DNA of 63,996 nucleotides, the filler included, from Rhizaria sp. SCN 62-66 (Eukaryota): the NCBI GenBank assembly GCA_001724265.1. It is 3 parts of 3 records of this genome, joined end to end, with 100 filler letters (N's around TTAATTAATTAA, not from the genome) between each part and the next. Parts side by side here need not be neighbours in the genome. Positions count along the whole stretch, not along the records: positions 24,886 to 49,620 come from MEDY01000417.1; 2 more parts are not named here. One strand, written 5' to 3'. Positions within the stretch are counted from its first letter, which is position 1. The number at the start of each line of letters is the position of its first letter. The notes beneath the pieces are model-generated. The model was not told the DNA's origin and did no database searches. It saw nothing but the letters and a program-made list of their open reading frames with translations. Shown here one piece after another: positions 1,370 to 49,720 of this stretch. A program made the position numbers and the translations under genes.

Positions 1370-4300
1370 TTAGCCGTTGTGGCGCAGAATGTGGATATAG
1401 TTGTCGATGCGGCGGTACGTCGAGTTGAGCGACTTGTCGATCTCGGCCTCGAGCTCCTTCTCGGCCACGCTGTTGGGCAGCTCGACGTTGAGCTTGTTGC
1501 GCAGGTACAGGATGTCGCTCTCGCGCATCAGCTCCGGCATACCCGCGGCCACCATGAGGATGAAGAGAGTCTCCAGGATGCCCGCGTTGGCGCGCAGCAC
1601 CTTAAACGCATAAGAGCACGTGCGCAGGAACTGGAGGAACACGTTGGACTTGCGGTAGTTTTTGCCGCCAATGACATAGGCCATTTCGGGCGTGAAGACG
1701 AACGCCGCGCGCTCGCGGTTGACGCCGAACTTCTTCTTGAAGTTGCCAAGGAAGTGTCCGAAGTCGATGTGGAAGAGGTGTCCGGACTTGGTGACCATGA
1801 TGTTGCCGTTGTGGCGGTCGCCGATGCCGAGCACGTAGGTCGCCACGCAGTAGCCCGCGCACGAGCGGATGAAGTTGTCGACGGCGTTGTAAAAGGACGT
1901 GCTGTCCTTATTGTGCTCGCGGATGAAGTTGTCGATGGGGTCGAGCTTGAGCGCGCCCATGGCTCCGCCGCCGTACTTGTGCTGGATGCCTGACGTCGTG
2001 TCGGAGTTAAGCACGATCTCGATCATGCCAACGCCGTCGCCATTGTCGTTGACGCCCGTGGCAAGCACGCGGTACGGCTTGAGGCGCATGTCGAGCTTGT
2101 TGCTGAGCCACATCTGGTCCATGACGCGCAGCAGCTGCAGCGTGAGCAGGTCCTGGCGCAGGTCGTCGCCGGACTTGAAGATGACGTAGATGGGAGGGCC
2201 GTCCTCGTCGGCGTTGCGGAACACAAGCCACAGCGGAACCATCTTGCTCGACATGAAGCGGCACTTCTCCACGATCAGCCCCGTCGCCTCCCACTTGGGG
2301 TTCAGCGGGATCTGGAAGCGGCCCATAGGCTGGAAGAAGGTCTTGTTGACGCGCTCAATCTCCTTTGTGTACTCGCGCATCGCGTCGGCGTCCGAGTACT
2401 GGAGGTCGCGTTTGAGGTGCACGATCATCTCGGCGATGCGCTGCAGCTTGTGCACCGTCGCGGCCTGCTTGTACAGCTCCTCCACGTAGTATCCGGCGTG
2501 CGAGAGAAACTCCTCGATGATCAGGGCGAAGCGCTCGCAGATCAGCGGGTCATGCACTTCGGCCTTGAGGTGCCAGAAGAACGAGTGGCCGACCTGAGGA
2601 GAAATCAAAGAAGAAAATGAAGGGGTAAATACATGAGTTTTGGACGACTCGGAAACAAAAAAATATAATACACAATAGAAGACAGAGATCGAGCAATACA
2701 AATCCAAACTTATTTCCGGAGCAATCCAGTCGAAATATATCGTTGTTCTTGCTATTGTCGTTAAAGCGTACCTGGTAGGGTGCCTTGAGCGCGCGCTCGA
2801 GCATGAAGCGCGAGAGCGGCGAGTCGTGGTAGGGCTCGAACTTGAGGCACTGCGTGAGCTGGAGCAGGTATAGCTGCAGCTCATCGTCCGTGAGGCGGTA
2901 CAACTGCTCCACAGCCCACTTGCGCACGGTGTAGTCGGCGTACTTGGCGTCGAGGAACTCGAGCGCGCGCGCGGGCTCGCTGGGCTGCGTCCAGAGCTTG
3001 AGCAGGCGGTGTGCCTCGTTGCGGAAGTCCTGCTGCCCCCAATCAACGCACTGCAGCACCTTGGCCAGCGCGGAAAAGTCGTCGACGAGATAGTGGCGGT
3101 AGCTCCACAGCAGCTGCTTGGTTTCGCTCGTGAGGCGGAAGAGCGGGTCGGCGCCGATGGCGTGGACCAGCGCACGCGACTGCTCCAGCCCCAGACGGCC
3201 GCGCGAGTCCGGCACCTGATGGCCCACCACGCGCGAATTCGGCACCGAGTAGGGCGCCGCAAGCGGGGCCACGACGGGCAGCGCGAAGCGCGGCATGTCG
3301 ACCACAAGCGAGGCCACGGGCGCGCCGACCGACTTGTTGTCGAGCGTGGTGGCGCGGAAGAGGAAGTCGGGATCAAGGTCGCGCTTCTTGCCGTGCTTCT
3401 TGCCTTCGGTGGCCGGGAAGGGCCAGAGCTTGAACTCGACGCGGCCCGTGCGCATGACGCCCATGTGGTCCACCAGCACCGAGGTGACCCACGCCAGCGG
3501 CACTTCCTTGTCCTTATCTGCGCGCTTGGCGATGACGACGAAGCCCAGGCGCACTTCGCGCGGCAGCAGCGAGTACTGCGATGAGTAGCCGCCCTGTAGC
3601 ATGGCGTCCCAGCGCACCGTCTCGCCGAGCTCCTGCGCGGGCAGCTCGTGCGACCAATCGAGGTACTCACAGCCGTGGAACAGACACGCGCGGATGTAGA
3701 TCGAGCCGATGTTGGGCGTCAGGCGCGGGAACGTCTCGGTGTTGATGTTGTCAATGCCGACAACCTTGAGCGAAAAGGGCGTGTGCAGCGCCGCCATCGG
3801 CAGCGAGCGCAGTTGCCACAGGTCAGCCTTCGGGTTCATGGCGAGCTTGTACGCGGCCACGTGCGTCTCCGCCGTCACGAGGCGGATCGAGCGGTCGATC
3901 TTGTTGCGGTAGCTCGTAACCAGGGCGGCGGCCTGTGCGACGGCGGTGGACTCGGACGCCGGTCCGGGGTCGGGGCGGCGCACCAGCAGCAGCTCGATGT
4001 CCTGAAAATTGTGACAACAACAAAAGAGCAAGGATATACCTTGATGAGATATAGTCAGGTCACAACAAAACTTGGAAAATAAATATAAACACAATCAAAC
4101 AACATTTCACATTATTTAATTTTTTAAACGATATTATCATTATGGTCTAAGAAGCCATAAGAACAGGACCTACCTGGTGGTCGCGGAGGCAGTGGCGGAC
4201 GTGGGCATACGAGAAGAACGGGTCGTCGCCGTCCATATACTCGTGGTGGCCGGCGACCTTGAGCACGTACTGGTCCATGTCGAGCACGTCCGGCGAGCCG

Positions 4301-16826: not shown

Positions 16827-19800
16827 TTACGCGGTCTTGCCACCCTCAGCCTTGAAGTCACGGGAAATGTTCTTGAAGTTGCGGTGGAACTGAGCGAAGA
16901 TGTACTTGACGCAGCGCGCCGTGCGGGCATGCATGGCGCGCGTGTTCTCGGGCAGCAGCTTGATCTTGCTCTGCGACGCGCGGCCCTTGCTGGCCTCAGC
17001 GTACATCGCCGCCTCCTGGCCCTCCTCGTCGTCGTCGTCATCCGACTCATCGCCGTCACCCGAGGAGAGCTTGAACAGCGCCTTCTTGAGCGCCTGCAGC
17101 ACCTGGTACATCTTGAACAGCGCCTCCCAGCAGGCCGTCTTGTTGATGCCGTGGGTCTTGATGATGTCATAGTAGTCGCCGTGCACGTAGAAGTCGAGCG
17201 CGTAGGCCGACAGCACAGCGCCCTCCATCGACGTCTCGGTGTTGATCGGCAGCTGCACGTTCTCGAGGCTGGCGTCGCTGCGCACGGCGGCGACCAGGTC
17301 GGCCAGCGTCGTGAAGCTGTCGTCACTGCCGCCGAGCGCCGCGAACGGCGAGCGCACGACAGTGGTCAGCGCAGTCTTGCTGACGTCAGCGAGCAGCGCA
17401 GACACGGCGGAGTCGGCGGCTGACACCGCCGCCGTCTCGGCCACGTCGGCGGTCGTCGCGGCGGAGGGCTGCGTCTGCGAGAGCGGGAGCTTGTACGACA
17501 TGCGCGTCGTCGCCTCGGCGGCCTCGCGCGCGGCGTCGGCCGTGGTGGAGCTGGATGCGGCACGGATCACCTGCGCGTTGGCCGCGGTCGAGTTGGACAC
17601 TGCGGCGCAGTAGCGCGAGAAGACGCGCACGACCAGTGCCTCGTGCTCGGCGCACGCCGCGGCGACGTCGGGCGAGATAGTGTCGAGCGCGGGGAGAATG
17701 ACCGCGGCCGGGGACGTGGCGGAGAACTCGCTGCGCATGGACCCGTTGCGCAGCAGCATGGGGTGGAAGATGTGGCACAGCAGCGTCATGAGCTTGGTCG
17801 CTGAGCCCGACTTGTCGCGCGCAGTCTCGTCAAGCTCGAACGACTCGCAGAGCCGGTCGATCACGCCGTTGCGCAGCAGGTAGGCCAGAGTGAAAGCGCC
17901 GTCGCCGCCGCCAGCAGTGGTGACCATGGACATGAGGTACGCGATGCCGGAGGGCGAGTTGTTGGGGAACAGACGCATCTGCTGGAAATAGGCCAGGCAA
18001 TAGCGGAAGTGGTGCACCAGCGTCAGGCGCGTGTGCTCGGGGTACTGCTGCGTGTAGGCATAGAAGGAGCGGAAGATGAGGTTGTCTTGCTCGACGAGCG
18101 CGAGGTTCGTCGACTGCTTGTTGGCGTTGTTGTCACGCATGAAGTAGTGCTTGATGAGCACGCGCAGCACGGCCGTGCACGAGAGGTGGAAGTGGCCGCG
18201 CAGCTCAGACAGCGACGACGTCATGAGGCGGCATGCCGCGCGCGGGTCGACGCCGAAGAAGACGACCTGGCCCTTGTCGTCGAAGCCGCGGCGGCCGGCA
18301 CGACCGGACATCTGGCGGTAGTTGAGCGGGTTGAGCTCAACCGAAGAGAAGGCGAACACAGCCGTGCGACAGGGCATGTTGACGCCGAGACCGAGCGTCT
18401 CGGTGGCGATGACGAACTTGAGGTTGCGCTGGCGGAACATGACCTCGACGAGGTCACGGTACACGCGGTCGACGGCGAGCGAGTGGACGCCGAAACCGCG
18501 CATGAGCGCCTTGATCAGCGGGTGCTGGCCGGTGAGCCCGGCGGAGCGGCGGCGCGAAGCGCGGCCCTCCCAGTAGGCCATGTCGTCGCCGCTCATGCGC
18601 TCGGTGTCGTTGATGAACGAGAAGCTGAACAGGGATAATATATCGCAATAAGAAAGCAAGAACATAAGTATCGAGTGAGCAAGAGAGTTCGCATAAGCGT
18701 TGTTTGATGTTTCAAAGACATATATGCACAGAACACATCAAACAGGAAGACGATGCAATGTTCGTAAAAAGCTGACGTACCGGTCGTCGGGCATGATGTG
18801 TCCCCAGGCGTCGGGGTTGAGCTCGCGCGCGCTGGGGCCGGAGATCTCAGCCTCGGCCAGGCCCATGCGCTCCTCGGCCTCCTGCTCCTTGCTGGCCTCG
18901 GCCGAGCCGGCGCCCTTGGCATCGCGGCTCTTCTTGGCGGCCTTGATCTGCTTCGCCAGCTCGCGCTCGCGGTTCTTGGGGTCCAGCCGCGGGTTGTTCT
19001 CGGCCTGCCACTGTGCCAGCTCGTCGGCCGCAAGGTCCGCCTCGAGGCGGACGGCGATGTCGGAGCAGAACGCGCGATCGAGGCAGAAAATGATGGCGGG
19101 GAACCAGTCGCGGTCGCGGAGCTGGCGCACCATGGGCAGCAGCTGCGCCATCCACTTCTCGCGGCGCACGCGCGTCGCCACCGTCAGCGGCTCCAGCACG
19201 GCGCGGATGTCCTTGCCGAGCGTGTCGATGATCTCGAGCAGCTCGGTGTCGAGCACGGCTTCGTGCCAGCGCACCAGCTCCGCCTTGAGCGCGTCCTCAT
19301 ACTCGAGCACGTGCAGCTTCTCCATCTGGAAGCCGAAGTACGCGTCAGGATCCAGCGCCTTGAGGCGCGTGGCCAACGACGCGATGTCCGCCGCCACGGC
19401 CGCGCCCGCGGGCGGGTGAAAGCGCGGGGACTTGGAGGCCACATTGCACATGACGGTGTAGACCTGGGGTGTGAGGGATAAAAAAGACAAGGCGATTTTT
19501 TTGGTGAGAAACATGACATTTCGAGATTAGAATCAACAGCAAGAGTATCACGAGTTGTTGTTATGTTTAGATTGTGTGAGAGAAGTCAGAGAATGTAGGT
19601 AAGATGTGTAAGCACCAAGTGCGGTAGCCAAGCGACAAAGTCGCTGCACCGTATGCCACGGATATGTAATCATCATATAAGTACACACAAAATAAACTAG
19701 TCAACGAGTTTCGATGTTACGATATTACGCACCTGGAGGAGGTCAGCGGAGGAGAACTCGACGTTCTTGAGCAGCGAGACGTCCTTGCGGCGCTCCTCAG

Positions 19801-24785: not shown

Positions 24786-24885
24786 NNNNNNNNNNNNNNN
24801 NNNNNNNNNNNNNNNNNNNNNNNNNNNNNTTAATTAATTAANNNNNNNNNNNNNNNNNNNNNNNNNNNNNNNNNNNNNNNNNNNN
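24786..24885. other. Artificial contig spacer (N-run with TTAATTAATTAA)
   Basis: 100-nt N block containing an all-frame stop linker. Confidence 0.99.
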
Positions 24886-24984: not shown

Positions 24985-25017
24985 ACCCTAATAACCCTAA
25001 TAACCCTAATAACCCTA
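24985..25017 (-). repeat. Telomere-like array (TTATTAGGG)x~3.7
   Basis: + strand reads ACCCTAATA ACCCTAATA ACCCTAATA ACCCTA. Confidence 0.8.
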
Positions 25018-28000
25018 TATTCTGCTGGGGAATCGACGCGGCGGCTCCGTTGTAGCCAGCAAGAAGGCCCGTACTAACTGTGTATGTGTTGAAGAGCTCC
25101 ATATACTGCGCGTATGTTGTGAGCACTGGACCGAAGCGAAGAATGCGCGGATTGAACAGGTAATTGCTGCCAGAGATAGCAGAGCAGCCGGAAAAACGCA
25201 CGACCGTGTCAGAAACGCGCGTAGTCGTGTCACAGCTTAACTTCGTCATTGGTGATGAAAACCCCGTTGTTGTTGCATTTGTAGTCGATTGCATCACAAC
25301 ACGCGGAGCCATCACAGCCTGCGCTGATGATATGTCAAAGCCGAATGCAGCCGGTAACGCAGTGTGTGCGTAGACAATGCACTCCCAGTCCACCAGGACG
25401 GGTGCAGCGCCGTGGTCGTCAAGGGCGGGGTTTAACCCTGTTGCAGTCAGCCTGGCGGCGATTGGATACGCAACAAAATCAAGGTGGCGCGAGTAACTTG
25501 ACAGCGCAAGTGTCGCACTTTGAATGCGACGGGTGCTGCCAGCGGTGCTGGTGACGGAGAGACAGTCGAGGCTAAGGCTGTAATGAGTCGAAACAGCTAC
25601 ATCAAACTCAACGCCGCTGTTAACACCGGAGCTAACGCGAAAGCCGTCAACTGAGAGTGGTGTAATGCTGCTGCTCGCAGTAAATACATTCAGATCTGAG
25701 CACGTTGACGCAATGGTGTACGGAATCGTCGCGTCAACAGGATTGGTTGAGTAAAAATAGAGCCGCAAAGTCGTGCGTAGCTGCCGCGAGGCAACAATAG
25801 TCGCACTTGGCACAAGTACGCGGTCAATCTGCTCTGCGTACCAGTAGTAGTTGATTGCGTTGGCGGGCCGCAGCGTAATGGCATACTCAGCAATATATCC
25901 GGCGTTGTAGTCTGGGGTGCGCACCATGATTGAGGTAGGCTTAAGTGTGTAGGGATCCAGAGCATTCTCACGGCTAACCTGATTGGCATAAACAACTGAG
26001 ATGCCACCAATGGTGCACGACACAACATCATCGCTCTGTGCGCCTTTACTAGTGGCTGTCACTATAAGTCGGATTTGTGAGGCAGAGGCCGAAAAAAATG
26101 AACATTGACCACTAATCACCGCAGCGGAAGCAAAATTTACAGAAGTCGTAGCAGGAAAGTACTCGATCCAGCTACCAACTGAAATCGGCAGACGCGACGT
26201 AAGAATAAACGTCCCTGAAACAGTCGTCGCAACGTTTGTTAACACGGTGCCCGGTGACAGCTCAAGCGATATGGCTGAGTATGTAAACGAAACGGGGAGC
26301 AAGTTTGCATCAAATGCATTTGCCATTGACGTCGCCAGTACCACAGACCACTCTGTGTTGCCCGTTGTCGACTCAAGGTAAATCATAAGCCCATAAGCTG
26401 GAATCGTCGTCTTTGATGACGCGGATGGAGCAGCGACATTGGTGACGTTGAGTTCAATCATGTTGCTGCCAAGCGTTGCCCCGGCCGCGCATGTAAACTC
26501 CAGTGTGTTCGTGCTTGCAATAGTGGTCATACAACCGGCGTTGGTGATCATAGAGTTTGTGGAAAACCGCATAGGACACGCGGCTGACGTGCGAATTGTG
26601 CCACGATACGTGTACCCCGCTCCACTGAAGACGCCTTCCATTCCGGTGCCGTACCAGGTGCGGAAGCCCGCAGTAAAGAGATTGTCACTGCCGGAGACAC
26701 CTGAGCGGACGTGGCCTTCAATGTTAAGCTTGAGCTGTTCGGGTGTGAAAACTCGAATAGCACCTTGGTAGTTGCCGCAAGAGAAGGTGTAAAGCAGCGT
26801 ATACGTATAAGTTGGGTTGACGCGAGAGAGGAAACCGCCTAAAACCCTAGAGCGAGAATCGTACCACGAAGCAGCGGGCCGTGCTGAGACTGAAAGGGTT
26901 GCCCCGGCATAACTCTGAAGGTTGCCGTTAGTGACCGTGCAGCGGAACCGGGCTGCGAGAGTTTTCGCCGTGTTAATGTAGAAAAATCGCGTGCCAACGT
27001 TCATGCGAATATAATACGAAGTGCCTGAGCGCTTTACGGCGGCGCCAAAAGTTGGCGTAAGCTCATCTGAGATTATAGGTGCTGAAAACGGTAGCATTGC
27101 GTGCATAGGTGCAATACTCTCAATGCTACTGATGAGTTCGCCGTAGCTGGTGGTGATTTCAAAGAGCAAAAATGACTCTGTCGTTGAATGATTCAGTGGG
27201 GCGACGATTGTTGCCATTTGTGATAGCGCATGCGCATCCCAATATCGCATTTTAATTTCTAGAATAAAGCTTGACTCAGCCGCGTAGAGAGTCGAGCCAA
27301 TGCTCGTTACAGACGCCGTAAGTTGATACGTTGGTGTGAATGTTGGATTGCCGCTTGAGGCATAGCTATTGACGTATAAGTTCGTCCGTGAATTGCCAAC
27401 AATACTGCCATACCAGTCGACAGCGTTGCAGCCCACGGCTACTGGTCCACCGCTCAGCGCAGCAAAGTAGGTTCCTGTCCAATAAGGCCTGGATGTGCCA
27501 AAGTTGCCCGTGCATCCATAGACATAGAGACGATCAGGCCCAGTTGTTGAGCCCTCGTCGCTAGTCGTCGGAGACAGCACAACGTAAGCGCATCCTGAAC
27601 CCCCATTTTGATACACTGGCGCCACTGCGTAGAAAACATTGTTTAATGGGGGTCCAATATAAACCGATGAGCAGCGTGATGTGCAAGGGTGGTAAATTTG
27701 CGAGTGAATATATGTGTTCGTGACGCTATAATAGGTGACTCCATTAGGATTAAGCCATGACATGTGAACAATGGGCTTGATACCAGAGTACGTCACTGGG
27801 GAGATACCCGTGGCCAAACCAAAAGCCTGCGTTCGAAATTTACTACTCGTATTGGCGCTGTGCATGCCAGACTCGCTAGTGCCGGCATGATGGTAGACGT
27901 TATCGTCATCGGGACGGGATGCATCGTATGAGCTGTTGCTGTTAACATTGTCGTTACGGCTCTTGGGAGTCGTATTAGAGTTGTCGGTTTTGTTTGTGGT

Positions 28001-29607: not shown

Positions 29608-29792
29608 TCACTCTGTCTGGGCGGTACTCTTCTTTTTCTGCGCCACATTGTCCCAAAACGCAGGCCGCCAAAATGGGCCCATCCCACCTGCATTATCTTC
29701 AACCCCCGACTTTGCGCTCCAATTTTTCGTCCTCGCACATTGCGCACCGTCAGCATCACCACTCACACGAACAGATGTGTTTGCACTGGCCG

Positions 29793-29823
<31 letters not shown>

Positions 29824-32800
29824 ATCTGCGTTTGCCACTGCAGCGGCAGAAACAAGAACAATCCTGCGCGCGCGCTCACTGGTGGACGCGCCGCGGCGCA
29901 CATATTCGCGCCACGACCGCGACTGCCGCGCCGCCAACACTGCTCGATAACCCGCAAACGCCTGCTGCGCCTCCTTGTCACCAGCGCTAGAATCGCCGGC
30001 AACGCCATCGTAAGTGTTCCAGCAATTGCTGTCCGGATCACTGGCGTTGTTGTACGGAGCGTTCTCCCACGGCATACGGTACAGCGGCGCGAACGTGTCA
30101 TCCTCCCTTTCGGCGCGACTCAGCGTTTCATACCGGCCGCGCAACGGGCCGTACGCCGGCGCTGCAAACGTCCCCGTCCCCAGTCCGCCCGCCCACCGGC
30201 CCGCAGTGAGCGTGACGCGGCCTCCGGCGCCGGTGAGCGTAGCGCCCGGCAGCGCGTACTGCGGGCGTCGCCATAGTAAGTCCCCGGGTTGGAAGAGCAC
30301 GGTGCGGCGCGTCACCGCGCGGCCCATTGGTGGCGGCGGGGCGGGGCGCAGCGGTGGCAGCGGCGCGGTGGCTGCCAGAGCGCGCAACACGGACGCGGCC
30401 TCGCTGTCGGTGTCCGCCACTGTAACGCTCTGCTCGCGGTCAATTAAGTCTGCAATGCAAAGTCGTGCCATATCGTCCATCGGGCTATTGTGTGAGACGC
30501 CGACAGTAACGCCCCAGCGTTGGGAGCTCTTAGTGTTTGTGCGAGTTTCGGTCGTCGCAGAGCGGGGCAAGCAAGACTGTGTCGCAGCAGCAGTGTCGGC
30601 AATCTCAGGAGGATGAGAGGTCGAATCAGTGATGATTGCAGGATTGCTTGAAGATTGTTGCGCTGCGTTAACTGTATCTGCAAGAGAGTCACTTGACAAC
30701 GTGTTCGCAGCTAAAGTTTTAGCAACATTAAGCTGTGGCTTTGAGTATGCTTCCGAGCGTTTCTTATCTCCTGGAACGCAGACATCAAGTGCAGCGGCGC
30801 TATTTGCGAGGGATAACGCAGAGTGCTCGTTTTGCTACTGCGCTAACGCATTTGTCGCTTGTTGTAACTCGGGAAACACAGCAAAGTCATCTTTCTCACT
30901 GCCACGGCGCGATAAACCCTTCATAGTAGTAGCAGCGGGTTTCAACGGCCTTGTTGTAGTTGCGCTCTTGGCGCTAGCGCGAGCCGCGATGCGCGTGTGC
31001 GCGTGGCTGGCCTCCGCAGCAAGCCCCGCACCGCCGAAAAAGGGCGCGGCAACAGCGCTCACCACAATCGCCTGCTATGAGGGACTCAACATGCTGGCAA
31101 CTGAGCGGGCCACGGACCGCAGTGTCGGCCGCCGCAGCAGCGGAGGCGCAGCGCGTGGGTGCTGTGGACGCAATGACTGTGAGCGTTGCAGCGACTGTGA
31201 GCTCTGCAATGACCGTGACTGTGATTTTGACTGTGACTTGGACTGAGGCGGCGAGAGTGAGTTAAGCGGAGACGGGAGAGTTGCATCGCTTGCAGAGGGT
31301 GTAACTGTCTTTAGAGTTGATGCATTCGCAGCAGCTTTGGAGCTTTGCTGTTGTTGCTGCTGCGATGTCTTGGTGGCAACAGTAGATTGTTTCGCAGTAT
31401 TATCATGTGCCTTAGCGTCCGTGGGCTCAGCATTGACAAAAACAACAACATCAGCAGCTGCAGCGTCAATTGTCTCAGCGGCACCGCTATCATTACCACA
31501 GCTGCCATCACTGTTTGTTGCAACGTCGTTGCCGTTCGCAGCATCGACAGCGCGCTGCTCAAACGCCGCCACAGCAGCATCCCTCTCAGACAAAGTCGCC
31601 ACGGCGGCCTCGGCCGCACGAGCGACTGCGACCGCGAGCGCACGCCTCTTTGCCTCAGTCGCCACCGTCGCTGCACTGTGCGCCGCTGTGTCTGACTGCA
31701 AAAACGCGCTCGTGGTGGATGTAGTCAAAGAAGTGTTCGCAGTGGTGCTGGGTTGCGCAGTGAGGGAGTGTGCAAGGCCGGCAGAGCGCGCGCGCCGTGA
31801 CCGCCATTGCGGTGAGCTATGGTAAGACTTTGATGCAGTCGGCGCGGGCTGCGAGCGCAAAGGGGACTTGTGCAGCGAAGACAAAGGCTATGAGCTGACA
31901 GAATCGCGACTTACAGGCGCGTTTGTCGTTGCGTTAGCGTGGGCCTCAGTACCACTCAGGCTCAGTGATGCTACTTTTGCAGCGTTTGTGCTTGAGTTTT
32001 TGCTTGGTTGGAAGCGTGCGGATGTTTCTTGGAGAACTAGCGCTTTGTGAGCGCGCACAGTAGCGCTACGACTCACTGCCGCATTGATCCCAGAGTACAG
32101 TGCGCGTGACAACACTCCGGTCATGTCATGCGGCTCACGGTCGCGCTGTGGACGACGATCTGACTGTGGGCGGCTCAACTTCTCGCTCTCGTCACTTTTA
32201 GCGCCGCCTTTCGGCTTTGACAAAGCAGTGGCATTAACAGCGCGCAGCAGTGAACGTTGCTTGCGCTGTAGCGGCTGCTGCTGCTGTTGTTGTTGTTGTT
32301 GATCTCGTTCTTGTGGCTCTCCCTGCTGCCCCAAATCGCTGCTGTGCGAGCTCTTGTTGTTACTCTCTGTGTTCCCAGTCCACGCCGCAAGCGCAGCGGC
32401 GAGACACCGTGTCGCCACCCGCGGCGGCAACGGCAGCCTGTGCGGGCGCGGCGGCTCCAGACTGGGCGCGCTGGCAGTCGCTGCGCCAGGCACGTGCGGT
32501 GGCTTTGCGTGGATCTGTAAGAGGGCAGGGGCGCGGGCTGAGAAACCGAGGCAGCGCGCGCATAGTGCAGCAAGAGTCTTTAAAGCTACGGGGTCAAATA
32601 AAGACTAATCACGACATTCACGCTGCCGCTGTGTAGTAGTGTTCGCATAAAATGTCGTTAAAACAGTTGCATCATTAGTTGCGTACGGCTTAACTAAAGC
32701 CAGGCTTGAAGTCGCAGTGGCATTGACATCTGGACAGCTAACATCACTTGTTGGTGATTGTTGCGATGAGGTTACAGCTTCACTGGTGTTTGTGCGATGA

Positions 32801-33477
32801 TTACTGTTGTTTGTGGCTATGTTGCGGCGCGCATTGGCGTGTTCCCACTACAACTGTCCCAGCAACGTATGCCAGTCAGCCGCTGTAGCCGGCGCGATAG
32901 ACAGTACAGTAGACTGTGGCTCACGGTCACGAGGTGTCTCTTCAGATACAGGCGCTATGACGGGCTCTGTTGCAGTCGCAGCCGGAGCTTGAGCCTCAAG
33001 CTCTGGTTTGGTATCCACAGACCTGTCCGTGGGCGTTGTCACTAAAGCGGTTTCATGCACTGCTGGAACATCAGTACCAGGGTCAGTGGGAGCAGCAGTT
33101 CCAGCAACAGTATCAGCAGAAACAGCAGTCTCAGCAACAGAGCTCGGCAGCGTCTCCGCAGCGGATGCTTGCGGTGCGCCCCGTTGTGCGTTATTCTGCG
33201 CCACCAACGCGGCCGCGTCGGTCTCCGAGTGCAGCGTGAGAGAAAGCAGCGCACCCGTGTCAGCGTTCACAGTCGCAACCACGCGGAACGCTCCAAGTGC
33301 AGAGAGGGCCATGAACGCCGACTCATGGTCACGGGTGAGTGGGACAACAATGCGCAGCACGAGCGGGGGCGGGGGACCGAATGGCGCAGTCGCAGAGCAG
33401 TGCGACAGCCCACTCGGCAGTGGCGCTTGGGGCGACACCGGTCCCAGATAGTCCAGGGACTGTGATGGGGTTGCCAT
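29608..33477 (-). CDS. Hypothetical low-complexity protein (~1290 codons) with five in-frame TAG codons
   Basis: Track ORFs 32848-33552, 31888-32493, 31075-31884, 30835-31065 and 29608-30699 share one frame. The only interruptions are TAG at 32848, 32605, 31888, 31075 and 30835. Ends at TGA 29608. Confidence 0.7.
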
Positions 33478-34910
33478 TGACGGGCGAGGCAGAGCGAGCG
33501 GTGAATTCACTCTCGCCGCAACGACAGATGGAGCTGAACAGGGGCAAATCAAAAGTTATATGGTTGTAATATAATATTGCACTTGTCATACTGTGATGAT
33601 TAACTCATTTGTGCCTTTTTGCGCTGATTAGAGCGACATTTGTGTAGGGCAGTTTAAGATAGCATGGCCGTTGAACTGTGTGCTCGATTGAAGCCCCTGA
33701 AAGGTACAACGACACAAAGTAATATATTATAAACGGGTCACATACAAAAATGCATTTAAATTATCATATCAAGGCAAACTATGCGGTGACGGACATTTTA
33801 TGATGTGGCTGTCATTTTTGTTTTAGCTCTCTGCCAGCTTGGCGAGGTAGCCGTTACCTGGAGTAAAGTGCAGGAAGCGAACAATTCAAGTCATATCTTG
33901 GCAGCGTCATCATAGTTGATAACATCTACAGTCCGTATAATATACCATGTTAAGTTGTGTCTTTTTAGCTGGGTGATTGTTCTTGAAGCCTGGTTTACGC
34001 AAGTGCATATCTTAGATGGATCTATTTTCAAGTGACACACTTGTGACAATGTCGCCGCATGTGTTCAAACAGAACCCAATTGCGACGACTACTCGTTTCC
34101 AACAGGATTATTAATTTGTACAACCCATGTTGCAGTTATGTAATAGTACATGTCTACCAAACCTAGTACCGTGCTCTATTGTCAACAAGCAATGCAAAGT
34201 TTCACAATCATAACGTGTATCGCCGTATCTAGCTCAGCAGGATACACATTTAAAGATAATATGTCCTACTAATTTATGAAAAACCGTATATACGACCATG
34301 CTGTTGCAATCAAACGTGGTGTAGCAAGAAACGTATGCGAAAGCAGAGTCAAAGGTTTCGTTACTCTCGGCACGAAGATTCTCAATGTGCGATGACCGTT
34401 TGTTGCGGCATTTGAGGGCATATCAAAATTACCAGAAAGAAAACAGCACTTTAAAAACAAAATAGTGTTATATCCAGAGCTTATAGGATTGACAGTTGAT
34501 ATAGCCCCGGTTCGAGTGAGTTATAACGCGTTTTTGGCCTCCTTTCTGCGCTGCGCGTGACTGCGCGCGGTAGCGGCGAGCCGAGTGGTCACCTGGTGAC
34601 TATATGGTGAGCTACGACGAAGATTCGAGGGGAAAGTTTCACCTGACTGTGTGCATCACATTAACCGTAAAGCACTAAATGTGCTCACTGTTGAATTAAT
34701 ATGCTTTGGTAGCTGTCTGGTTTTATTATTGGCACTTTTTGAATTTGCGCTTGAGAGACTTTATGCTATGCTTTTCTATCTGCCGCGTGCCGATGGGCAG
34801 ACGGCGCATGCACTTTCTGCCTCGCCCCTATCGACCATCATGACCTTACCCACTCACACCACAAATGCTTGCTATCGATATCTCCGTTTGTCTCGTTTTG
34901 CTTTATGTAG

Positions 34911-37476: not shown

Positions 37477-40216
37477 ATGGCGTCCAACTGCGCGTTAGAG
37501 CGCGCGCTGAAGAATCCGTTGGAGGTTCTCCACGAGCACGTCGGCTCGCTACCTGCCCACGTCCTGCGCGAGACCTCCAATGACTGGGGCATCCCTGAGC
37601 TCTTTCAAGCTGCGTTTACACCCGCGATTTTGAGCCGTATTCCGTCGCTGAACCTCGGCAGCAGCAACGCGGTGCACCACCGCCTCATCCGCTTCCGCGG
37701 CATGGTCCAGGTCCGTTGCCCTTTCACCTCACTAAACACGCGCTCTGATACCATATATCCCAACGGATCAACTTCAAACTGTATAGAGATATTTCAATAT
37801 GCGTGTTATATGTTTCATGTGAGTTCTGTGTTAACATGTATCTATTTGTCTGTTTTGCGTCCGATAATAGGACTCGTTCGAGGCCGAGTACTTCCCCGGT
37901 TCCTACGACGAAGTCGACGAGGCCTCCGGCACCCGCACTCCTCGCTGCGCGCGCTACCACGACGATCCCGCGCTGCCACTTGGCCGCCGCGCCGAACCGC
38001 ACCTCGGTTTGTCCTCGCGCCGGCTATTCCATCTCGTCTCCGTGCCCGGCGAGGCGTCGTGGCTGGCTGCGCTGCTCGAGAAGCAACTCCGGTCAAGCGC
38101 CCCCACGCCCGCAACCACGGTCACCGCCGCCGTTGCCGCCGCCACAGGCGCTGTCAACAGCGCGAGCACGAGCCGCAAGCGCACCGCGGCTGACGGTGCC
38201 ACTCCTGCTGGTGATAGCAACAACAGCGCTGCCGCCGCCGCCGTAACTGCTGCGGCGGCTGCAACTGCCACTACTCCCGTTGCTAAACTCGGCCTTGCCC
38301 CTGCTACCGCGACTGCAATTGCGATGGCGGGGGCTGGGGCTGAGCACGGTGACGGCGATGGCGAGGGTTTGCTTGCTGCGCGTGGCCCCGCCTGCGTGGC
38401 AGCGTTCTACGGCGGCGAGTCATTCCGTCTCGGCGAGGTTATCGAAGTTGTCGCCGTTGCCGCGATTGACGCGTTTGACGCGTTCCCGATGCACCAGTTG
38501 CAGCATAACCACGGCCGCGGTAACGCCGCTAAGCCTATGGGCGACGATGACGCCGACGACAACAACTGCAGCTCTTCCAACAACAACGGCAACAAGAAGA
38601 ATAAGCGTCGCGCCTGCGGTAACACTACTAAGTGCTCCGACAACGATCACGACGACGACGACGGCATTGATGCCAAAGAGGAAGAGGGGGAGTGTGGCGA
38701 GTTCATCGCGAGCTACGGCAGTGTTCTCAGCGGTGGCATGTCTTGCGAAGACGAGGACGGCGTTTACGCTGCCGCCGCGCGCGGACCGCTGAGGCTGCAC
38801 GTCCTGGCGTGGCGCACAGTCGCCCCCGGCGCCGGCCTCATCCCCCCGCCCACCCCCGCCACAGACTCTGACTCTGCCTCCGCCTCTAGTGCGAGTGCCA
38901 ACAACAAGAGTAAGATGAACAGTGATGGCAACTGCGACGATGGTGAAGAGGATAGTCAGGCAACGAAAAGCTGTGACGTGTCTGTGCGCACCTGTGACGG
39001 CGGCGCCGCCTTTGCCGCGGCGCACGCGAGACTCCTCGCCCGCCCGCTCACTATGGGGGCCACTGCTGACTCGGTAGCAGCAACGAATCCGACCGTGAGC
39101 CCCGCGACTGGGTTCGACGCCATGCGGTCGGCGCTGCTCACGGTCATTTCCCCTCTGCTGGGCGGCGACGCGCTGGCCTCAGAGGTGCTGTTGCTGGCCC
39201 TGTTGTCACGCGTGACTGCGAGGGTCGATGAACGCGTTCTCGGCCGGTTTAACCTCGCGCTTTCTGACTTAGACCGCGCTACAGTCACTCACTGTAACAA
39301 CCGCACGCACTCTAACGCGGCGACTGCGACTGCAGCTGCAGCCGCGCCTGGTAGCACTAACGACGCGAGTGCGAATGCTGTTGCTGTGAATGTGGCTGGT
39401 TTAGTCCGCGCGCTTGCGCCGCGCGCCGTGTTCCGCTCTGTGACGATCGACTCCCTCAACGCGCGCCGCTGGGGCCCTGTTAAAGACGAAGCGCGCGGCG
39501 TGCTTTCGATTGCGCCGCTTCAGCTGGCCCGCGGGGAGACCGTCGTCGTGTTGGATGAGACGGCACTCGGGCCTGGCCAGCTCGCTGACACTGGCGTGCG
39601 CAACCTCCAGCTGCTGTCGCGGCTTGCCAAGGAGGCCGTGGTCGAGTACGAGTTTCCGTACACCGACGGACTGCGTTTTCCCGTCGACGCAAGTCTGCTG
39701 GTGCTGGCGCGGAAGCGGCCGCTGCTGCCGTACGATGTAAGGGTGCCCTTAGCACCCGTCGCGCAGGCCGCGGCGCTGCCCGAGTGGGTGGCGCGCGCCG
39801 CGGCGGTGTCTGCGGGGGTGAGGAAGCAAGGCCAGGCAATGAGCGACGGCGGGAACAAAGAACAGCAGCCAGGGACTGATGTGGCGGCGGCGGATGGTGC
39901 GGAGGAAGAGCAGGAGGGGGAAGACCGGCTGTGGCAGTTGCGCGAATACCTCCAGCTCTGCCGCCACACGGCCACGGCGTTTGACGAAGAGGCCTCCGAG
40001 CGCGCGCTGGCGGACATGGTGGCACGCATGCAGCGCGACGGCGCCGGGGGCCGCGACGAGGAGAGGCTGCACTTGCTCATGACGCTGGCCCGGCTTATCG
40101 CGGCCTCACATGGAGAGGTTAAGATCTCTGAGCAGCGGTGGCGCCGCGCGACGGAGATGCTGGACGCGATTGTTGCGCGCGACGAGAACGCGGCGACGGC
40201 GGCTGCGGCGGTTTGA
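37477..40216 (+). CDS. MCMBP: Mini-chromosome maintenance complex-binding protein
   Basis: Exons 37477-37710 and 37871-40216. IPSLN...LIRFRGMVQ|DSFEAEYF, LGGDALASEVLLLALLSRV, LQLARGETVVVLDET, GVRNLQLL, YEFPY, LHLLMTLARLIAASHG. Stop TGA. Confidence 0.9.
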
Positions 40217-45783: not shown

Positions 45784-47008
45784 ACGCGGCGGCAATCGAA
45801 GAAAAATCATACCTAAAGCAAGACTGACTGGCTGATAAATGTAGCTCAAGTCAGCTGTGTGTTGGTTTCGAAGCTCTTGTTTGTGTCCTTCGTGTGGCAC
45901 TGCTTCGAAGTTGTCGATGCAATTTCTAAGTGTATTTGCCGTTTCACTTTTTTATGTTCATGCCTTGTTACAGTTTCACGATGCAGGATAAGTTTAAAAC
46001 AATATATTTATACAAATCTTCGATAAATAGTTTATTTATTTCCGAATTTGTACTTTCTTCTCGTGGACTAATTAGTTGATTGACGTATATTGCGATGGCA
46101 TTGGACAGATACGTTCGTATGTGTATTATTTTTGAAAGAGGAACTGACAGCAGTATTGCAAACAGCTAACGTTGTAGCATGCGGAGAAAGCTGTGGTGAA
46201 GCTGCAAAAACGGCATTCTTTTTTGGGAGAACTGTCTGCGAAACAGTGCAGCAGCGGTCAAGAAGAAGCAACGAGTTGCAATAGGCGAGAAAGGAGTGAC
46301 AGTGCGATTACTGTCGAAAATGAAAATGAAGGATAAATGCGGGAAAAAAATAGCGCTAAACAAAGACGGGCGAGTATACCCGGAAACCATCACCGTACAG
46401 AGGCGTACCATCAAAAACTTGAAATGTGAAACTACAACTAGCTATAAGCAGCAGTTGCAAACAAGAAATCAACAAAAGTCGACTCTGCGACGCTAGGATG
46501 TGGCTTGAGCCACAAGATCTTAAAACATATTTTTTGTGTGAATTACTTTTTTTTTCGACTCATTAGAACAAATGTGCGCAGCTACACATTCTAAAAACAC
46601 CAAAGACAAAAGCGCTAGTGTGATAACGCAAACCCTACCAGCACGTTCACAGTTGCAATGGTGCGACTGCAACACAACGAAGGACGAGTGGAACAAAAAC
46701 ACGAAAATCTGAACAGTATCTGAATCTGTCAGAACAGTATAGTCAGTGCAGAAAACGAAGTGTTAACAAAAAAACGCAATCAAAAGCAAAATCACGTTCT
46801 CTTAAAGAAAATACGTCTGATTGTCGGTACTGATGGGCTTCCATTGCTTACGCCCGAGCGGCCGATGGCGCCGTCGTGTCGGTGACCCACTAAGGGTCCG
46901 ACGCACGCTGCCGGCCTCCGCGACGGGCGCACAGGCCGCCATGGCAGCCGCCGCGCTCGCCGAGGACGCGCCCGCTGCGGCCGCGGCACCTTCCTCCCTC
47001 TCACTGTC

Positions 47009-48496
47009 TTAATCGTTGTTGTTGTCGCTAATCTTCAGGGCCGCAATACCCTCGACCAGCGCCTTCTTATCCAGCGCCTTATCCTCCTCCTCATCCTCAT
47101 CCTCATCCTCTTTATCCTTTTTATTATTCAGGTCCTTGACAACGCGCTCCGCAGATTCTTCGACCAAGGAAGGCTTGGGAAGTGCGGAGATTGCGCCAGT
47201 CTTGTTGATGCTTATCGAAATGTCGTAGAGGGAGGACATCTTCTTGTAGTCGCCCTCGAATGTAAGCGCAATCACAGCACCGCGCGACTCTGTACGATCA
47301 TGGCTAACAGCGCACTTGGAGTGGAACATGCACTACAGAGCCGGGTCCACTTCCACTGACTCCGGGTTAGTGTTATTGTTCATTTCAGGGGTGTTCGGCA
47401 CTGCAAGAGGCCACAAGTACGTCGAAACAACGGAGTGGGATGTTTTCCCGAGGTTGAGCAGAGCGCGCCCAGCCTTGTTTGTCGTGCGCGACAGCTACCT
47501 GTTACCGACCTCGGGGATTTTGCGGTACACTCCCAGGAACGAAGCTACAAAGCACGAGCAGAGACAAAGGATCTCGTAGCATGAAATGAGGTAGTATGCG
47601 CGTGCCATGTGGCGCGTAGCCTTCTCCGTGGGATTATTGGCAGGTTGGGCAACCCCGTCCTTATCGACGAAGTAGTAGCCGTCTCCCTCGGTGACGATGT
47701 TTGCAGCGTCGCGAGCACTGTTGCTGTAGTCAAACATGTTGCTATTGGTTTTTTCGACTCGCTTGATGGCGATTGTCTCCTCCATAGCTATCGTCTCGTC
47801 CCCACCGCTCAGATTTGTTCCGAAGGAGGCCCAGCGCTTGTGACAGAGCTCGCATAGCGCAACGAACGCCTTCTGGATCAATTTTGCAGGGGCAAGACAA
47901 AGCACAACAAAGCCATACTTCTAGCGTTCCGTGTCGGCTTCGTCAGTTATGTGTTCCTCTTGGTCAGTTTTGTGTTCCTTGCTGATTTTACGCAGCTTCC
48001 ACAGGTACTTAAACTTATTGTCGCCTTCGCTGTACACCTGCGTCGTTACGCGTTCGCTATCTTCCACCTCAGATTCGTTGTAGTTATACTTGAGGCACGC
48101 AAAACGGCGACCAGAGAGGTACATGATTGCACAGACGACATTCTGGCAATGCTGGGCAGCAACACCGTTGCTATGGTCTCCGGCCTTTGCGTATGCTATG
48201 AACTGGTGCAAAATATTCGTGGCGTTCTCGATCGAGGTGCGCACGTTGAAGCGACGAAGAGGAGAGAAATAGCGCGTACTGTCAAGCTTATAAAGCGTCT
48301 CAGGTGTAGAGAGATCACAACCACTACCCTTAAACATCTTGGCTTCCACGATCTTCGTGGGGGAGGTACAAAGCTGTCCGTGCGTAGCGTTGTCCTGCCT
48401 ACCTATAGCGTCGTTCTGCACACGAACTGCAAACTTCGGGTTAGGGTCTTTCTTAGGCGTGGGCACAGTTTTGCTCTTCGCCGATGACGAGGACAT
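47009..48496 (-). CDS. Protelomerase (telomere resolvase)-like tyrosine recombinase with three in-frame TAG codons; intact gene under a variant code, or a pseudogene
   Basis: Track ORFs 47921-48496, 47495-47905 and 47009-47329 share one frame, separated by TAG at 47921, 47495 and 47333. Ordered motifs LSGRR, KYLWKLRK, VLCLAPAKLI, RHMARAYY and LGK-x8-Y. Intronless. Confidence 0.6.
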
Positions 48497-49620
48497 ACCG
48501 TGCCGGGTCTCTTACAGCGGACAATCGAGGGGTGTCGGGTGACCTGTCTGCGTTGTGATCTTAACGAGTTTGGCGCTGTTGAACGAAAAAAGAAGCAAAA
48601 ATATGACAATGGTGCGTGAAACAAAAGTGAAGAGTTGAAATGACGCGTGATAGCGTCTTTGTACAGTCTTAATTACATATCTCGCCGCGAAACTGGTGTG
48701 AAAAGAAAGTTAGTGGTGAGAGGTTGAATGCACAATGCCAAGCTCGTTGCAGTTATCTTGTACTACACCGTGAAGTGATAGTGTATCGCATAAAACGCAC
48801 GGAATCTACATGCAAGTACAATGTGTGTGATGGATGTCACTCTTTTTCTTTCATTCTAATGTGTTCTCACGTGACAAGAGGAAAGTCAAGAAGCGATCCT
48901 TGGGCAATCTCCATCGTTTGAAGGCTCTTATTCTCGCCACCAAACCCAGGCGTAGAAAACGACAAACGATGTTGTCACATTTGAAAATGAATCTAAACAA
49001 CGATGTTCTTTTGTTGCAATGATGAGAAATCCTGCTTCACTGATCCAATATGCCGGAATGCGATAGGTTTGGAAGGTGATGGTGACCTCCATAATGACGG
49101 CTTAGCTTTCACATCGCGAAAAACAGAAAACCACGTGATCAGTCTAAGTGCTGTGGTGCTCACAGTCAGTTTTTTCTTCGCTTTGTGGTGAGATTGATAA
49201 AACAAGTTCCTCAGCACCGTAGACATAATCAGCTACTGCAAAAGCAAAATATAATCCATCAATTGACAAAGTATGTAATACTACACATTACAATATTGTT
49301 TTTAGAAGACGCTTTGATAATCAACTACTAAAGCTAATTTATCATTCGGGCTATCCTCAAACTCGAAGATATTTGCCAGTAAGCATTAGCACTCAACAAC
49401 AGTTTCGAAACGCAGTTGTTTAGCTTGATCATTCGGTTTCTTTCTATGATACAGCCTGCGTATGTGCGTGCGCAAAGCTTTCTTCAGCTGGGCCAATGTC
49501 CAATGTCCAATGCGAAGTACAGTACCCCTGATGTAGAGGTTTATGGAAAACGCAAAAACGCGCCTGGAAGGGGCAGTTTGAAATAGCCATACAACTTTGT
49601 CAAACTTCCGTCAAATAAAA

Positions 49621-49720
49621 NNNNNNNNNNNNNNNNNNNNNNNNNNNNNNNNNNNNNNNNNNNNTTAATTAATTAANNNNNNNNNNNNNNNNNNNNNNNN
49701 NNNNNNNNNNNNNNNNNNNN
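49621..49720. other. Artificial contig spacer (N-run with TTAATTAATTAA)
   Basis: 100-nt N block containing an all-frame stop linker. Confidence 0.99.

Follow-up and report, generated by a model that had tools for sequence, protein, structure and literature searches.

The window analysed here is a 63,996-base stretch of DNA from Rhizaria sp. SCN 62-66, in which three metagenome contigs stand one behind the other. On the minus strand of the middle contig (MEDY01000417.1) lies a 495-codon coding frame (P0001, 47009..48496) that contains three TAG codons and no other stop before its terminal TAA. Since the frame is open and coding on both sides of the TAGs, since two further open reading frames (ORFs) of the window carry TAGs in the same manner, and since no gene with an assignable end terminates in TAG, UAG is best read as an amino acid. 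It is probably a rare sense codon in this host, which would keep both UAA and UGA as stops. The gene itself we tentatively regard as an intact, single-copy, lineage-restricted nuclear orphan, translated through its three UAGs by a host that decodes UAG as an amino acid.

The frame begins with an ATG at 48494..48496, five codons past an in-frame TAA (48512-48514), and ends with the TAA at 47009..47011. Its TAGs, all on the minus strand as well, occupy codon 192 (47921..47923), codon 334 (47495..47497) and codon 388 (47333..47335); the first falls inside the stretch of the protein that matches a Pfam model, and the other two have coding signal on either side. It is only across these three codons that the frame becomes complete, as an earlier note on this DNA had claimed, and the resulting 495 residues have their motifs where that note placed them and do carry the acidic tail it described. 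From base composition, 14.9 TAA and TGA codons would be expected within the frame, and none is observed; for TAG, the figures are 7.4 expected and 3 observed. There is no frameshift. The predicted protein consists of a basic, Lys/Pro-rich N-terminal tail, a core of ~290 residues and the acidic C-terminal tail, a composition that would fit a nuclear role in association with nucleic acids or chromatin. Among the motifs, SGRR (residues 128-131, nt 48104-48115) is followed by FKYLWKLRK at residue 162, YGFVVLCLAPAK at 194 and ATRHMARAYY at 293.

Codon usage shows that the frame is more than a chance opening and is coding throughout. When scored with a codon table built from 10 further genes of the window, the whole frame yields +0.22 bits/codon, while the other five frames range from -0.24 to -0.77; by the same measure the host genes used for comparison, those for the MCM-binding protein and the MFS transporter, reach 0.25 and 0.27 bits/codon, respectively. 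Each of the four pieces delimited by the TAGs is positive in the same frame (+0.17 to +0.41) and negative in all others, the last piece, downstream of the third TAG, giving the highest value of all (+0.41). Even the 53 codons between the second and third TAG have a coding score above that of 4998 out of 5000 nucleotide shuffles. The GC content at third codon positions (GC3) is 0.64, and both this value and the codon bias of the gene are lower than in most of its neighbours.

The TAGs are real sequence and not assembly errors. Contigs of three sequencing runs (X1, X2 and X3) span the gene with 0 differences, the figures for X2 and X3 being identical and possibly derived from one data set. The TAG at 47921 is also present in a contig of 151 nt belonging to a fourth run (X4) of a different study and in a contig of the Joint Genome Institute (JGI; L092, 1611 nt) that covers window positions 47779-49389 with 0 mismatches and adds no new flank. 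The same gene sequence is found in samples dated 2015-2017 and 2025. Read depth over the gene (39.0) equals that over the adjoining DNA (39.4), which means that the gene is present as a single copy in the same organism.

Evidence that UAG is read elsewhere in this host comes from a scan of the whole window for stops that lie inside the best of the six frames and are flanked on either side by coding signal. The scan retrieves five TAG, no TAA and a single TGA, the latter located within an in-frame intron of a helicase gene. Three of the TAGs are those of the gene under study, and the remaining two (63263 and 62996) belong to the P0007 gene of the third contig (62459..63994, minus strand), which is cut by the window end. 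P0007 has an intact homologue of 661 aa, P0009, with which it shares 47 % identity in an alignment that is ungapped at both TAGs; identity amounts to 46.6 % in the part that precedes the first TAG, to 62.5 % between the TAGs and to 55.3 % beyond the second. Since homology continues beyond the TAGs, the parts that follow them are under selection as protein, and no other single result speaks as strongly for UAG read-through in the host.

A third ORF, on the middle contig, extends over 1315 codons (29608..33555, minus strand) of low complexity, rich in Ala, Ser, Thr and Gln, and has TAGs at 32848, 32605, 31888, 31075 and 30835. No family could be assigned to it. Here 27.2 TAA and TGA codons would be expected and 0 are found; its codon bias is weak (-0.12) and yet the best of the six frames. 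Together, the three TAG-bearing ORFs contain 10 in-frame TAGs, no TAA or TGA and no frameshift. Complementary information is provided by the terminators of the nine genes that have a family or a recognisable end in the last exon, i.e. those for PI3K, NAD-glutamate dehydrogenase (GDH), Tdp1, the DDX60-like helicase, the EF-hand protein, the WD40 protein, the MCM-binding protein, the PRL-type phosphatase and the MFS transporter: TAA closes seven of them and TGA two, while TAG is not used at all, in a sample that is small and for which the gene models are our own. The two ORFs of the window that do stop at a TAG (4147 and 19697) have this stop within an intron. The proposal of the earlier note that UAG must be read is thus supported from several sides: by the coding signal around the TAGs, by the two further TAG-only ORFs, by the alignment of P0007 with P0009 and by the terminators (0/9 TAG). 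As an observation in its own right, TAA is the commonest terminator of the family-assigned genes (7/9) in spite of a GC3 of 0.7-0.94.

If UAG is indeed a sense codon here, it would specify an amino acid, with UAA and UGA ending translation. Such a host would possess a tRNA whose anticodon is CUA, a release factor unresponsive to UAG, or both, and UAG would be a rare codon limited to genes of weak codon bias.

A number of points weigh against this reading. All 10 TAGs are found in three ORFs (~2,320 codons), while the remaining 20 coding ORFs (~12,900 codons) are free of them, a spread so uneven that an ordinary sense codon would not produce it unless it were strongly selected against. The three ORFs concerned are also those with the weakest codon bias (-0.12, 0.07 and 0.22), and relaxed selection would have the same effect on codon usage. 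In these genes, 54-58 % of the nonsense codons accessible by one-step changes are TAG, so that the fact that all the stops are TAG is by itself weak evidence. The residues of P0009 that face the two TAGs of P0007 are Lys and Gly, and with such different residues at the two alignable sites no amino acid can be named for UAG. ARAGORN finds no tRNA gene in the window, and the evidence base for the inferred code is 64 kb of one metagenome bin. Finally, the notion that the protein is an orphan has to be set against a likeness, discussed below, to the protelomerases, enzymes that make covalently closed hairpin ends.

As to homologues, none is found in 1.8-5.8 billion proteins. There are 0 matches among 6322 candidates of near length, and among shorter proteins only the gene's own three fragments are retrieved. 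Among 1.84 billion representatives five matches are obtained, namely these three fragments and two long proteins whose similarity is confined to the acidic tail. The organism that supplies the P0007 homologue contributes no relative either. The fragments themselves measure 181, 96 and 88 aa and are all that public protein collections hold of the gene, which bears out the prediction that standard annotation would split it.

The most serious competitor of an orphan gene is a very divergent DNA breaking-and-rejoining enzyme of the ResT/TelK type, which would have been domesticated or acquired from a linear element or a virus and would likewise be read through UAG. We consider this possibility doubtful. 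Its starting point is a match to the ResT-TelK_cat family (PF16684) over residues 83-215 (nt 47852..48250, minus strand), which includes the SGRR motif, spans the first TAG and is the sole match among 24,736 Pfam models even at E<=10. With an E-value of 4.4e-4 the match is nominally significant, a point that counts against orphan status; its score of 20.3 bits is nevertheless below the curated family cut-off of 27, and it covers only profile positions 5-91 of 181, i.e. the first half of the catalytic domain. For comparison, TelN of phage N15 scores 84.5 bits over positions 22-181. Residues 193-369 alone have no Pfam match at E<=10, which leaves the half of the domain that contains the proposed Arg, Lys-for-His and Tyr without profile support, and the separate pieces between the TAGs have no Pfam match. 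The catalytic set of such an enzyme would comprise Arg131, Arg295 and a basic residue located at 167-170, with Lys351 substituting for His and Tyr360 acting as the nucleophile. At a palindromic site, the enzyme might break the two strands and close them again into hairpins, or catalyse a similar reaction of cleavage and religation.

The second line of support comes from the alignment of individual residues. Residues 83-370 were added (MAFFT --add) to 24 protelomerase catalytic domains from phages, Borrelia, Pantoea and IMG/VR, although the IMG/VR retrieval yielded TelN-like phage enzymes only and brought no added diversity to the set. The protein is identical at 10 of the 13 invariant columns (G, R, R, E, R, N, R, L, G and Y), and the remaining three have Arg for Lys, Lys (Lys351) for His and Ser for Asp. 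The stretch LGKTSHSVVSTY (residues 349-360, nt 47417..47452, minus strand) would contain both the Lys that replaces His and the nucleophile Tyr360 (nt 47417-47419), as placed by eye and by MAFFT only, without profile support. At least 10 of 13 invariant columns are reached by 0/150 and 1/725 shuffles (1/875 combined), which again speaks against an orphan; this statistic is post hoc and concerns a sequence that had been picked for these very motifs, and the same selection precedes the placing of Arg131, Arg295 and Tyr360 in invariant columns. When the columns conserved at >=80 % are considered instead, 14 of 43 agree, a figure equalled by 32 of 150 shuffles. The two hydrophobic "motifs" coincide with the two places at which the hydropathy of the protein is highest.

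More general comparisons give no support to this kinship. BLASTP yields a best E-value of 0.56 against N15 TelN and of 0.011 against Borrelia ResT, the latter upstream of the catalytic block, and hhalign against eight phage protelomerases returns a probability of 0.7 %. A custom hidden Markov model (HMM) of the 24 catalytic domains gives -0.8 bits, which 498 of 2000 shuffles equal, and phmmer against the PDB has 0 matches at E<=10. The TelK_N, muzzle and stirrup domains, all three of which are detected in TelN, are absent from the protein at E<=10. The best hits in PHROGs (E 0.017) and NCBIfam (E 0.11) are to unrelated or unnamed families. A single-sequence AlphaFold2 model, made with no alignment, is unusable (mean predicted local distance difference test score (pLDDT) 35.5, predicted template modelling score (pTM) 0.24), and the Protein Atlas returns noise only for the first uninterrupted piece (best score 0.88; model pLDDT 0.35).

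What persists of the protelomerase-like recombinase of the earlier note is thus the PF16684 match, which falls short of the threshold of the telomere-resolvase family (20.3 bits, below 27), while BLASTP, hhalign, the 24-domain HMM and the PDB search speak against it. The claim of retained catalytic residues fares similarly: Arg131, Arg295, Tyr360 and Lys351 for His are recovered in the MAFFT alignment, but the invariant Lys is replaced by Arg and the second half of the domain lacks profile support. A sub-threshold match to half a domain and some 10 motif residues do not demonstrate homology, and the protein is therefore filed as an orphan. Protelomerase-type genes do occur in eukaryotic genomes, inside endogenous phaeovirus elements (PMC13236599). 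That a free-living eukaryote should harbour a single-copy, host-adapted nuclear gene of this type outside any virus, with Lys for His and expressed via a UAG-sense code, seems unlikely to us. If true, a protist would have an enzyme that makes or resolves covalently closed DNA hairpins, for example at the ends of chromosomal or extrachromosomal DNA or at palindromic intermediates of replication.

The genomic surroundings bear on where such a gene might have come from. The earlier note had considered an endogenised virus or a linear element, an origin that is not supported. The neighbouring genes are cellular and code for an MFS transporter, a PRL-type phosphatase, an MCM-binding protein and a WD40 protein; because of these genes, the idea that the middle contig is a linear plasmid or a virus was rejected. 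Codon usage is host-like, and the depth of the gene (39.0 against 39.4) is that of the neighbouring DNA. No match to the gene exists in phage, plasmid or IMG/VR collections. Its flanks contain no viral or transposon genes and no long palindromes, the 24.7-kb contig is devoid of long inverted repeats, and neither direct nor inverted repeats flank the gene. An imperfect palindrome (74 %) is located just past the stop codon at 46914-46969; it was considered as a special target site and discarded, as it is one of 18 similar ones in the GC-rich tracts of the window and hence ordinary for such tracts. The absence of the accessory domains of TelN argues against a protelomerase, and that of an exceptional palindrome may do so too.

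Another explanation of the TAGs is that the gene is a young pseudogene, i.e. a lineage-specific gene that has suffered three recent nonsense mutations and has had little time to decay. At most an N-terminal piece of 191 residues would then be made. TAG is the commonest one-step nonsense outcome in the gene under study (57-58 %), its GC3 is low (0.64), its codon bias is below that of most neighbours, it has no homologue in the collections searched, and the TAGs of the window are grouped in three weakly biased ORFs, all of which is compatible with loss of function. Moreover, the TpA/ApT ratio of the gene (0.96) is the highest among 16 genes compared. The pattern of the lesions, however, is not that of decay, as 10 nonsense codons over three ORFs are accompanied by 0 frameshifts and 0 TAA or TGA, whereas with the usual ratios of indels to substitutions several frameshifts would be expected alongside ten nonsense codons. 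The coding signal is undiminished past each TAG and highest in the last piece (+0.41). In the P0007 gene, the regions after the TAGs are better conserved than the region before, and the sequence of the gene under study is identical in the samples of 2015-2017 and 2025. A pseudogene is consequently improbable. A C-to-T process similar to repeat-induced point mutation (RIP) finds no support either: the (CpA+TpG)/(ApC+GpT) index is 1.05 in the gene, while the two further TAG-bearing ORFs have values of 1.31 and 1.32, all of them inside the range of the other genes (0.98-1.39).

Splicing is the least probable of the alternatives and very unlikely indeed. The spliceosomal introns known in the window (19464-19731, 18625-18779, 4002-4172 and 37711-37870), situated in the genes for the DDX60-like helicase, PI3K and the MCM-binding protein, have the donors GTGCGT, GTACGT, GTAGGT and GTCCGT (pattern GT[ACG][CG]GT) and YAG acceptors; they measure 155-270 nt, with a GC content of 0.29-0.40 and negative coding scores in every frame. 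A candidate in-frame intron of 177 nt (47333..47509, minus strand) would remove the second and third TAG together with the proposed Lys/Tyr motif, so that a single TAG would remain, which would either be read or truncate the protein. It has the sole strict match to the donor pattern in the gene (GAG/GTCGGT at 47509), the third TAG lies within the acceptor-like CTCTGTAG, and its length keeps the frame and is inside the known range, but its GC content (0.56) and frame-specific coding score (+0.16) are unlike those of the known introns, its interior beats 4998/5000 shuffles as coding sequence, and it leaves unexplained both the first TAG and the TAGs of P0007 with continuous homology across them.

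An intact gene read through UAG, the reading that we retain, is embedded in what is clearly eukaryotic DNA. The statement of the earlier note that the contig is eukaryotic is confirmed by the four GT...AG introns and by the presence of eukaryotic gene families. A trypanosomatid origin, first suspected because the ORFs are GC-rich and poor in introns, was abandoned on account of the four introns. The host is an uncultured, GC-rich protist with introns and an exon GC3 of 0.7-0.94, and the DNA of the window originates from bioreactor and wastewater metagenomes. Linkers of the form N44-TTAATTAATTAA-N44 (24786-24885 and 49621-49720) separate the three metagenome contigs within the window; since the contigs are merely joined end to end in this way, adjacency across the linkers has no meaning. 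Eukaryotic genes are nevertheless present on all three. They include GDH, Tdp1, a DDX60-like helicase and a PI3K of class-I type, in which Ras-binding, C2, accessory and kinase domains are recognised, as well as the MCM-binding protein, the MFS transporter, the WD40 protein and a PRL-type phosphatase that ends in CCTIM. The helicase and the PI3K with its Ras-binding domain may be of use in placing the host. The gene under study lies on the middle contig (24886-49620, 24.7 kb), ~1.1 kb short of its right end.

Several features of the middle contig deserve mention. Straight after the stop codon of the gene comes a tract of 81 % GC (46900-47000), in which the run contigs break, with an overlap of just 15 nt (46958-46972), and at which contigs from other organisms accumulate (depth 272 against 39). 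The joining of the 2.4-kb piece that carries the gene to the remaining contig depends on the assembly at this point and is supported by equal depth on either side. The right end of the contig (49495-49620) is a high-copy repeat with several sequence variants, whose summed contig depth is ~6,244 compared to 39 for the gene (run X1); it has no Rfam match and none of its k-mers occurs elsewhere in the window. Close to the left end, at ~100 nt, about 3.5 copies of CCCTAATAA (24989-25020), a telomere-like unit with an extra TAA, are contained in the open frame of an ORF of 1245 codons.

If UAG is a sense codon in this organism, it would add another case to the rare nuclear codes in which UAG and UAA are split. 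The case would be unusual in that the codon is seldom used and occurs solely in genes of weak bias, as an early or costly reassignment might look. There is also a practical aspect, since standard gene calling truncates genes with a sense UAG. A cellular eukaryotic hairpin-forming enzyme would, if true, matter far more than a code variant, but the present evidence does not carry the protelomerase idea. A limited literature search retrieved no cellular eukaryotic protelomerase outside viral elements, and a published case remains possible.

Compared with N15 TelN, phiKO2 TelK and Borrelia ResT, the protein resembles the protelomerases in the order of its motifs. G-R-R..E comes first, then a hairpin-like stretch with a basic residue behind it, a hydrophobic helix whose last residue is Arg, the motif Arg-x-x-x-Arg/Tyr and finally L-G-x with a Tyr nine residues on. 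It differs from them by Lys for the invariant His and Arg for the invariant Lys in the MAFFT alignment, by insertions of ~25 and ~23 residues, by the lack of N-terminal, muzzle and stirrup domains, and by a chromosomal eukaryotic setting among cellular genes with no adjacent palindrome. Cryptons and DIRS-like retroelements are mobile elements of eukaryotes that encode tyrosine recombinases. Like them, the protein would be a tyrosine recombinase with its gene in the nuclear genome of a eukaryote, but this gene is single-copy and has neither a domain of the Phage_integrase type nor a nearby reverse transcriptase or terminal repeats. The protelomerase genes of phaeoviruses, of which endogenous copies exist in brown-algal genomes, are alike in that a gene of the protelomerase type resides in the genome of a eukaryote. 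These copies are part of large viral elements with viral core genes, whereas the gene described here is single-copy, follows host codon usage and lies between cellular genes (PMC13236599).

With regard to the code, UAG is the only reassigned stop in a rhizarian, exLh (Leu), in Iotanema spirale (Gln) and in several phyllopharyngean ciliates (Leu or Gln), and UAA is retained as the main stop in these documented codes and is the preferred one in the ciliates (PMC5304391, PMC11687900). Relative to these systems, the present host is distinguished by the rarity of UAG, which is confined to 3 of ~23 ORFs in the 64 kb, and by a GC-rich genome with short AT-rich introns. It resembles them in having in-frame UAG in coding genes and in the use of UAA and UGA as terminators, with a preference for UAA (7/9).

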